Assembly (NCBI RefSeq): GCF_003334255.1
Contig: NZ_QOWU01000021.1
Source: Escherichia coli
GTDB lineage: Bacteria > Pseudomonadota > Gammaproteobacteria > Enterobacterales > Enterobacteriaceae
DNA length: 64,000 bases
Reading direction: 5' to 3' (one strand)
Shown here: piece by piece, positions 62,130 to 62,349 of the stretch
Layout of the letters: each line of letters opens with the position of its first letter
Position numbering within the stretch: position 1 is the first letter of the stretch
Program-made: the position numbers and the translations under genes
The notes under the pieces: model-generated
Databases searched by the model: none
What the model was told of the DNA's origin: nothing
The model's input: only the letters and a program-made list of their open reading frames with translations

Positions 62130-62188
62130 ATGAAAATGGCCGGATGGTATTACCCACCCGGCCTGAGACTGATGACAAACGCCAAATT

Positions 62189-62287
62189 GCCTGATGCGCT
62201 ACGCTTATCAGGCCTACAAGTGCATTGCAATCTATTGAATTTGCGATGTTTTGTAGGACGGATAAGGCGCTCGCGCCGCATCCGGCA
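62189..62287. repeat. REP pair (BIME) between yqeB and yqeA, flanked by perfect 26-bp direct repeats at 62138-62163 and 62318-62343
   Basis: gcctgatgcgctacgcttatcaggcctac and inverted gtaggacggataaggcgctcgcgccgcatccggca; about 85% identical to the fbaA-mscS BIME cassette. Confidence 0.85.
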
Positions 62288-62349
62288 TCAACAAAGCGCA
62301 CTTACTTGACAATCTTTGGCCGGATGGTATTACCCACCCGGCCTTTAAA

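Follow-up and report, generated by a model that had tools for sequence, protein, structure and literature searches.

How REP sequences and the BIMEs assembled from them spread has been a question since the 1980s, and a 2026 preprint describes the in vivo insertion mechanism as 'not fully established', with 'semi-random insertion' assumed. The closest described element is BIME-1 (RIP/RIB), whose parts stand in a canonical order: an A motif, a Y REP, an L linker with an IHF-type site, a Z1 REP and a B motif. BIME-1 linkers bind IHF (PMC3333891 and work cited there), and REPs are stated to lack the signatures of MITEs (PMC3184786). In the accessible literature the family is known without target duplications, whereas the copies described here carry hairpin-length duplications and have empty sites. 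BIME-1 also resembles the REPIN/RAYT system: its inverted REPs can fold to one hairpin, it is non-autonomous, a rayT gene is present in the genome, inheritance is vertical and the element is extragenic. The difference is that Y1 transposition leaves no duplication, and that REPIN papers describe excision footprints. A and T runs at the borders of Pseudomonas REPINs have been taken as co-option for termination (PMC3337134). Y1 transposases of the IS200/IS605 type act on single strands and without target duplication, and no binding of TnpA_REP to double-stranded DNA was seen in vitro (PMC3333891); absence of target repeats is stated for Y1 elements (PMC3333891, PMC2817692).

Other systems share single traits with BIME-1. 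Correia/NEMIS elements of Neisseria and ERIC/IRU elements of enterobacteria are likewise about 100-150 bp long, intergenic and co-transcribed, with terminal inverted repeats, and Correia elements also have an internal IHF site (PMC3184786). Unlike BIME-1, however, these elements duplicate a fixed TA, lack REP units and do not target hairpins. Cas1-Cas2 carries out strand transfers at both borders of an often palindromic target, and gap filling then duplicates the segment, with help from IHF in the E. coli type I-E system; casposons produce target duplications of 14-15 bp. The likeness of BIME-1 to these is a functional analogy only, since the enzymes and the inserted DNA are unrelated and BIME-1 takes any local hairpin as its target, not a CRISPR repeat. 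Bacterial class C group II introns insert beside the stem-loops of intrinsic terminators, which they recognise as structure. Their target choice is like that of BIME-1, but they are retroelements and the hairpin is not duplicated.

The window, a 64-kb stretch of Escherichia coli DNA, corresponds to about 3.011-3.075 Mb of MG1655 in reverse complement. It contains two BIME-1 cassettes, one between yqeB and yqeA and one between fbaA and mscS, and neither locus has any repeat feature listed in the RefSeq MG1655 record. Full-length Rfam matches elsewhere in the window to 6S RNA (ssrS, 18577-18760, - strand) and Sib antitoxin RNA (17778-17928, - strand) are ordinary K-12 genes, unrelated to the cassettes. 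The features of the yqeB-yqeA site are as follows.

60504..62129, + strand: yqeB coding sequence, whose 3' end adjoins the site (ORF list; MG1655 and RefSeq annotation of the identical sequence).
62137..62164, unstranded: left copy of the duplicated hairpin, TGGCCGGATGGTATTACCCACCCGGCCT (perfect 28-nt repeat, single in empty alleles).
62165..62316, + strand: full-length BIME-1 (RIP/RIB-type) of 152 bp, from GAGACTGATGACAAACG... to ...CTTGACAATCTT (88.5% identity to positions 1-139 of a 152-nt consensus of the 31 full-length copies listed).
62165..62187, + strand: left outer arm (A motif) with the left terminal inverted repeat AGACTGATGACAAA (conserved in copies from seven genomes).
62188..62217, - strand: Y-type REP (palindromic unit), with GTAG on the - strand (pattern matches).
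62218..62252, unstranded: L linker, with the conserved GCAATCTATTGAATTTGC at 62227-62244 and an IHF-type core inside.
62253..62287, + strand: Z1-type REP, with GTAG on the + strand (pattern matches).
62288..62316, + strand: right outer arm (B motif), whose right terminal inverted repeat has the consensus TTTGTCAGCAATCT and reads CTTGACAATCT here (matches the consensus of full-length copies).
62317..62344, unstranded: right copy of the duplicated hairpin, directly 3' of the yqeA stop (repeat; alignment with empty alleles).
62350..63282, - strand: yqeA coding sequence, annotated by PGAP as arcC, carbamate kinase (ORF list; annotation; convergent with yqeB).

With all parts in canonical order, the yqeB-yqeA copy is a member of the BIME-1 family. 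It has the inverted Y and Z1 REPs, the A and B motifs and an L linker with a predicted IHF consensus (core ATTCAATAGATTG, 62228-62240 on the - strand, 12/13 against WATCAANNNNTTR), and it is extragenic, lying between the stop codons of two convergent genes. The preliminary description of this site gave the perfect flanking repeat as a 26-mer, GGCCGGATGGTATTACCCACCCGGCC, which occurs exactly twice in the whole 64-kb window (62138-62163 and 62318-62343), against a chance expectation of 0 from 100 shuffles in which up to 3 mismatches were permitted. The repeat is indeed present, identical in both copies and hairpin-forming, but its full perfect length is 28 nt, from 62137 to 62164 and from 62317 to 62344, 180 apart from start to start. 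Both 28-nt copies form a hairpin with the arms GGCCGGaTGG and CCaCCCGGCC; the left one starts 7 nt past the yqeB stop codon and the right one 5 nt past the yqeA stop codon. Since 62165-62316 is exactly one consensus unit, the 28-nt repeats touch both ends of the element.

As single-stranded DNA, 62130-62350 folds with -46.2 kcal/mol (z -5.4), and the REP doublet can fold as one hairpin. Because the target is palindromic, the two direct copies can equally be read as an inverted repeat, so the whole arrangement of hairpin, element and hairpin is foldable as one hairpin of about 208 nt. Each insertion into a palindromic target in this way extends the effective terminal inverted repeats of BIME-1.

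Comparison across strains shows what the locus looks like with and without the element. A query spanning yqeB-yqeA matched in all 5,426 complete E. coli genomes; the full locus was found in 1,649 of them and was 180 bp shorter or absent in the other 3,777, while a query made of the flanks only found the locus present in 5,169 genomes. The rows without the element, as sampled, span exactly 180 bp less, which is the 152-bp BIME-1 plus one copy of the hairpin. Four sequenced empty alleles have a single hairpin. The aligned ones (O157, WEM25 and strain 21437) read TAA-ATGAAAA-[one hairpin]-TTAAATTA, with a 40-bp intergenic region between the stops. Filled alleles occur mainly on K-12-like haplotypes, with 99.9-100% identity, and in a few divergent ones (O78, MSB1_7C); empty alleles have 97.7-99.6% identity, plus one at 100%. 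The most divergent E. coli haplotypes sampled are empty both here and at fbaA-mscS. The presence/absence polymorphism that the preliminary description had proposed to look for thus exists at both loci, since fbaA-mscS is filled in 3,720 of the 5,426 genomes.

The same description had put the identity between the two cassettes at about 85%, close to the 86.7% found over 143 aligned positions. It had also extended the similarity to non-REP flanks, and these outer segments are indeed alike, but they are the terminal inverted-repeat arms (A and B motifs) of the element itself. What lies beyond them at fbaA-mscS is a direct repeat of a different sequence from that at yqeB-yqeA, namely the rho-independent terminator of fbaA plus 12 nt, so the claim of a shared architecture holds: this cassette, too, stands between copies of a hairpin of its own locus.

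4602..4638, + strand: left copy of the fbaA terminator plus 12 nt, AGGCCCGCTCTGCGGGTCTTTTTTTCGCCAAAAGCAA (the empty alleles of Nissle 1917 and Ecol_881 hold this sequence once, without differences).
4639..4769, + strand: BIME-1 with a shortened left arm (start near AAATTGCC) and a complete right arm (comparison with the consensus).
4770..4805, + strand: right, diverged copy of the fbaA terminator, AGCCCCGCTCTGCGGGGATTTTTTCGCCAAAAGCAA (repeat alignment).

The two fbaA copies, 36 and 37 nt long, differ by 3 mismatches and 1 indel. Between the stem copies at 4602-4620 and 4770-4788, one pair is changed on both sides, from G.T to C-G, so that the stem is kept, which suggests continuing selection for a hairpin in the second copy. 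In Nissle 1917 and other B2-type strains this locus is 167 bp shorter and has one terminator copy, identical to the left copy of K-12. That left copy has a T7 tract, retained or regained, and over a similar length other sequence stands in place of the left arm of the BIME-1, ending at a stretch that is alike in both (CAAAAGCAA against CAAACGCAA). The left side of the fbaA cassette could reflect gene conversion from the right copy that restored a strong terminator, or else an atypical insertion.

Two side observations concern this cassette. The left arm is cut at one same place in three independent loci (fbaA at 4621-4645, L018/L112, L100/L120 and L141:35184), where (A)AACGCAAAA... comes straight after the hairpin, without GAGACTGATGAC; the shared cut may point to a second kind of left end or to a secondary event that recurs. 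The Rfam model of the sRNA ES036/CssrF matches the linker of the fbaA BIME-1 (4664-4706, - strand, 47.3 bits), with the yqeB-yqeA copy below the gathering score, and this 'sRNA family' is evidently the BIME-1 linker.

Two further loci have filled and empty alleles. Most E. coli have at lpdA-yacH a bidirectional terminator, AAAAAAGCGGCGTGGTTAGCCGCTTTTTT, alone; the empty allele reads A6-GCGGCGTGGTTAGCCGC-T6. In MS1170 and E69 the locus is filled, and an A-run and hairpin are followed by BIME-1 and then by the hairpin again with a remnant T-run. At uvrB-yvcK the empty alleles (L135/L136) have one hairpin. K-12 (L134:270-510) and E. albertii have BIME-1 inside the 5' arm of that hairpin with 2-3 nt repeated, whereas in E69 (L092:4240-4500) the BIME-1 copy is another one, and the repeat takes in the entire hairpin. 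Two different copies at the uvrB hairpin indicate that the same hairpin was struck independently, at least twice. With one hairpin in the empty alleles of four loci, and with repeat sequences that are unrelated from locus to locus, the repeats are host DNA that lies outside the element. The preliminary description had named, as the outcome that would speak against target duplication, that the repeats belong to the conserved unit in all copies, and this did not occur. Its proposal of a mobilised unit that duplicates a hairpin target is borne out: the repeats differ at each locus, they abut the ends of the 152-bp unit and the empty alleles of the four loci hold one hairpin. The 206-bp feature between yqeB and yqeA is very probably one full-length BIME-1 inserted with duplication of a 28-nt hairpin target.

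A wider survey was made by scanning for the linker motif in one genome per species, which gave at least 120 stretches, about half of them chance matches in unrelated phyla; it is a sample and not a census. The scan returned at least about 70 BIME-1 copies, in E. albertii, three divergent Escherichia lineages and two Pseudocitrobacter genomes. The consensus of the 31 full-length copies among the matches listed is 152 nt, from GAGACTGATGACAAACGCAAAATTGCC... to ...GAACAAAGCGCACTTTGTCAGCAATCTG, and so larger than the REP pair. It ends in 14-nt terminal inverted repeats, AGACTGATGACAAA and AGATTGCTGACAAA, which match at 12 of 14 positions, and the ends are sharp and constant across copies.

To detect flanking repeats, the 50 nt that precede the left end of each copy were compared with the 60 nt that follow its right end, and flanks paired across loci served as the null. 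Among the matches listed, which comprise 66 copies at 49 loci of seven genomes, 21 copies (20 loci) scored at least 10, where the cross-locus null expects 0.23, and 17 copies scored at least 12, a score reached by 0 null pairs. Of the 31 listed copies with both ends intact, 18 have repeats. The left repeat stops at the first base of the element and the right one begins just past its last base. Among the 21 listed copies the repeats are unrelated between loci, with a median of 20 nt and a range of 12-40, and for 16 of the 21 the predicted fold is a strong hairpin (MFE at or below -5 kcal/mol, z from -3 to -6.7). The duplicated length tracks the size of the stem-loop, reaching 0-1 nt past the stem. 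Among the matches listed, 12 of the 20 repeat-bearing loci have an A-rich run before the left copy, a T-rich run after the right copy or both (8 with the former, 7 with the latter), the pattern that splitting a terminator at the foot of its stem should leave. Many independent loci thus show the hairpin-duplicating footprint, and they belong to several genomes of Escherichia and Pseudocitrobacter.

The picture is not uniform. Duplications of 2-7 nt were found at uvrB in K-12, at L037/L064 (ATAGCAT) and at L074; at L065 the repeat covers only the 3' arm and T tract; and about 40% of the full-length copies among the matches listed have no detectable repeat or a one-sided hairpin. In a search for an age signal among the copies listed, repeat quality did not correlate with the identity of the element to the consensus (rho 0.04), and this identity is a poor clock because Pseudocitrobacter copies dominate the consensus. 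In 314 kb of MG1655 around the window there are five BIME-1 copies with outer arms. Clear hairpin repeats flank those at fbaA, yqeB-yqeA and tcdA-mltA; the copy at barA-gudD has a decayed repeat (16/26) and the one at yggL a one-sided hairpin. Around some 15 BIME-2 or other REP clusters, among them the one at 32268-32440 in the window, no comparable flanking repeat was found. That cluster is of BIME-2 type, has no flanking direct repeat and matches Rfam naRNA4/CssrE over 32271-32348 (- strand, 75 bits).

The survey also returned some unusual arrangements. Although BIME-1 is described as single-copy per locus, Escherichia sp. E1V33 has tandem arrays in which hairpins and BIME-1 copies alternate, with three hairpins and two elements (L109:1717-2030, L113:118-460, L115:2341-2660); a second element entering one of the hairpin copies, or unequal exchange between hairpins, could account for them. 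Downstream of exbD in MG1655 (L138:25799-26012) there are two tandem Y-linker-Z1 units with a variant linker, TTGCAACATGTTGAATCTTC; this atypical BIME has neither outer arms nor a flanking repeat, and an ordinary terminator follows it. Escherichia-type BIME-1 also appears in assemblies from unrelated phyla, namely Alkalicoccobacillus porphyridii (L089, a 720-bp contig of coverage 1), Desulfosporosinus sp. OT (L059, a 262-bp contig) and a Bacteroides MAG contig (L062), most likely through enterobacterial contamination or mis-binning.

The search for a RAYT gene that the preliminary description had recommended found a cognate one, rayT b0228, at 247637-248134 in MG1655. Elements of the IS200/IS605 type make no target duplication, whereas 21 of the 66 copies listed have duplications of 12-40 nt. 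Classical MITEs share the terminal inverted repeats (12/14), but they have a fixed short duplication where the BIME-1 duplications run from 2-3 to 40 nt.

The simplest reading of a duplicated length that follows the stem-loop, and is not fixed, is that joining takes place at the 3' foot of the hairpin on each strand. We propose that, on each DNA strand, the element would be joined at the 3' base of that strand's own hairpin. The two joining points would lie a full hairpin apart in linear duplex DNA, and would be adjacent at the four-way junction of an extruded cruciform, where an IHF-induced bend of the linker could bring both ends of the element. Gap filling would then copy the hairpin onto both sides and give the order hairpin, element, hairpin; if the palindrome were not extruded, the same reaction would give a duplication of 2-7 nt only. 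This cruciform-junction mechanism is put forward tentatively. As the catalyst, RayT suggests itself and is the candidate favoured in the field; we rate it a little short of even chances. Both BIME-1 ends carry C^TGA, the core of the TnpA_REP site in vitro, TGCC^TGAT/A (PMC3333891), and this sequence match is a lead only as a link to RayT. Because TnpA_REP acts on single strands and belongs to a family without duplication, RayT alone does not predict the footprint; either host synthesis finishes the reaction or another enzyme is involved. Several observations count against the favoured explanation: the variable length of the duplication, the copies without repeats and the flat correlation (rho 0.04). 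Convergent intergenic regions also gather positive supercoils, which disfavour cruciform extrusion. Our broader reading, held with the same reserve as the mechanism, is that BIME-1 may be a structure-targeted mobile element with a previously undescribed integration, in which an extruded hairpin or cruciform, usually a terminator, receives both ends at its base and has its whole stem-loop duplicated.

The alternative that survives best concerns the mechanism only. In a replicative template switch, which likewise implies insertion with hairpin duplication, a nascent strand that has just copied the hairpin would fold back, and an excised single-stranded BIME-1 circle would serve as its next template or be ligated to it. 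Synthesis would then return to the original template at the hairpin foot, and the hairpin would be copied again. Such a switch fits the single-strand chemistry of RayT and accounts both for a duplicated length equal to the hairpin and for its variation. Short similarity between element ends and flanks, as it might leave, was seen at three loci only (fbaA, L010 and L075); across the 20 repeat-bearing loci listed, no consistent microhomology between element ends and flanks was found, and the sharply constant ends are more typical of enzymatic cleavage. We consider the template switch possible but rather unlikely.

It could also be that the arrangement of hairpin, element and hairpin is old and that empty alleles arose by recombination or slippage between the hairpins. 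RecA-independent deletion should readily use a perfect 28-nt repeat whose copies lie 180 bp apart, the filled yqeB-yqeA alleles in a few divergent backgrounds would agree with loss, and WEM25 is empty although its flanks are 100% identical to those of K-12, so that its empty state may be a secondary deletion between the 28-nt repeats. Bachellier 1997 (Genetics) is said to have reported 'excisions of a whole BIME-1'. Yet loss leaves the locus-specific hairpin duplication at 20 or more independent loci unexplained, and the most divergent haplotypes sampled, empty at yqeB-yqeA and fbaA, as well as the two independent strikes on the uvrB hairpin, speak against it. The polarity of the yqeB-yqeA polymorphism, insertion or loss, is not proven, and none of the loci drawn from E. 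albertii or the cryptic clades covers yqeB-yqeA. Repeat-mediated deletion surely takes place, but it cannot create the architecture. Loss can account for some of the empty alleles and not for the architecture, and as a general explanation it is improbable.

About equally improbable is that BIME-1 is a classical MITE, moved in trans by the DDE transposase of an insertion sequence with matching terminal inverted repeats (TGAGACTGATGACAAA). The 14-nt inverted repeats with 12 matching positions, the sharp ends and the 2-7-nt duplications at some copies would suit such an origin, but a DDE transposase gives a fixed short duplication, and here the length follows the hairpin over 12-40 nt. That the flanking repeats are part of the repeat unit, a product of chance or pre-existing tandem terminators, a first impression given by the GC-rich hairpins beside both cassettes of the window, is rejected as extremely improbable, given unrelated sequences at each locus, no null pair at a score of 12 or more against 17 of the copies listed, single-copy empty alleles and a yqeB-yqeA 26-mer found nowhere else in the window.

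An insertion at the foot of a terminator, as favoured here, has consequences for the neighbouring genes. The targets at fbaA and lpdA are clear terminators. At yqeB-yqeA a terminator scan passes only the left hairpin copy on the - strand (match 62163..62138; GGCCGGGTGG...CCATCCGGCC followed by ATTTTCATTT), which is the copy that bears the T tract. After insertion the proximal hairpins adjoin element sequence and not a T-rich tail, and each gene keeps a hairpin by its stop. As the copy with the T tract lies beyond the element, BIME-1 is probably within both 3' UTRs, and yqeA transcripts probably cross the element and end at the distal hairpin. REP stem-loops in 3' UTRs are described in the literature as affecting mRNA decay.

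With regard to novelty, the BIME-1 element and its presence/absence polymorphism are already known, and the hairpin-length target duplication may be new. No account of hairpin or terminator duplication by REP, BIME or REPIN was found in the accessible literature, and there is a real, if minority, chance that others noted the footprint earlier, for instance in the older primary papers (Bachellier 1997, Boccard & Prentki 1993, Gilson 1991).

If the reading given here is true, this would be the first in vivo footprint of REP/BIME transposition. The footprint, recurrent and with filled and empty alleles that segregate among thousands of genomes, is direct evidence for insertion of BIME-1 as a discrete unit of 152 bp; it defines the target as hairpins, often terminators, and it constrains the enzyme, which must join both strands at the base of a hairpin. 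If RayT, with IHF, catalyses the reaction, it would be a Y1 HUH transposase that makes target duplications, contrary to the current picture of the family. The predicted outcome for the host is a rewiring of 3' UTRs, with the T tract lost from the proximal hairpin and retained by the distal copy. Insertion would preserve a hairpin for each neighbouring gene, terminators would serve as safe harbours, and the position of BIME-1 at the 3' ends of genes would be explained without selection.
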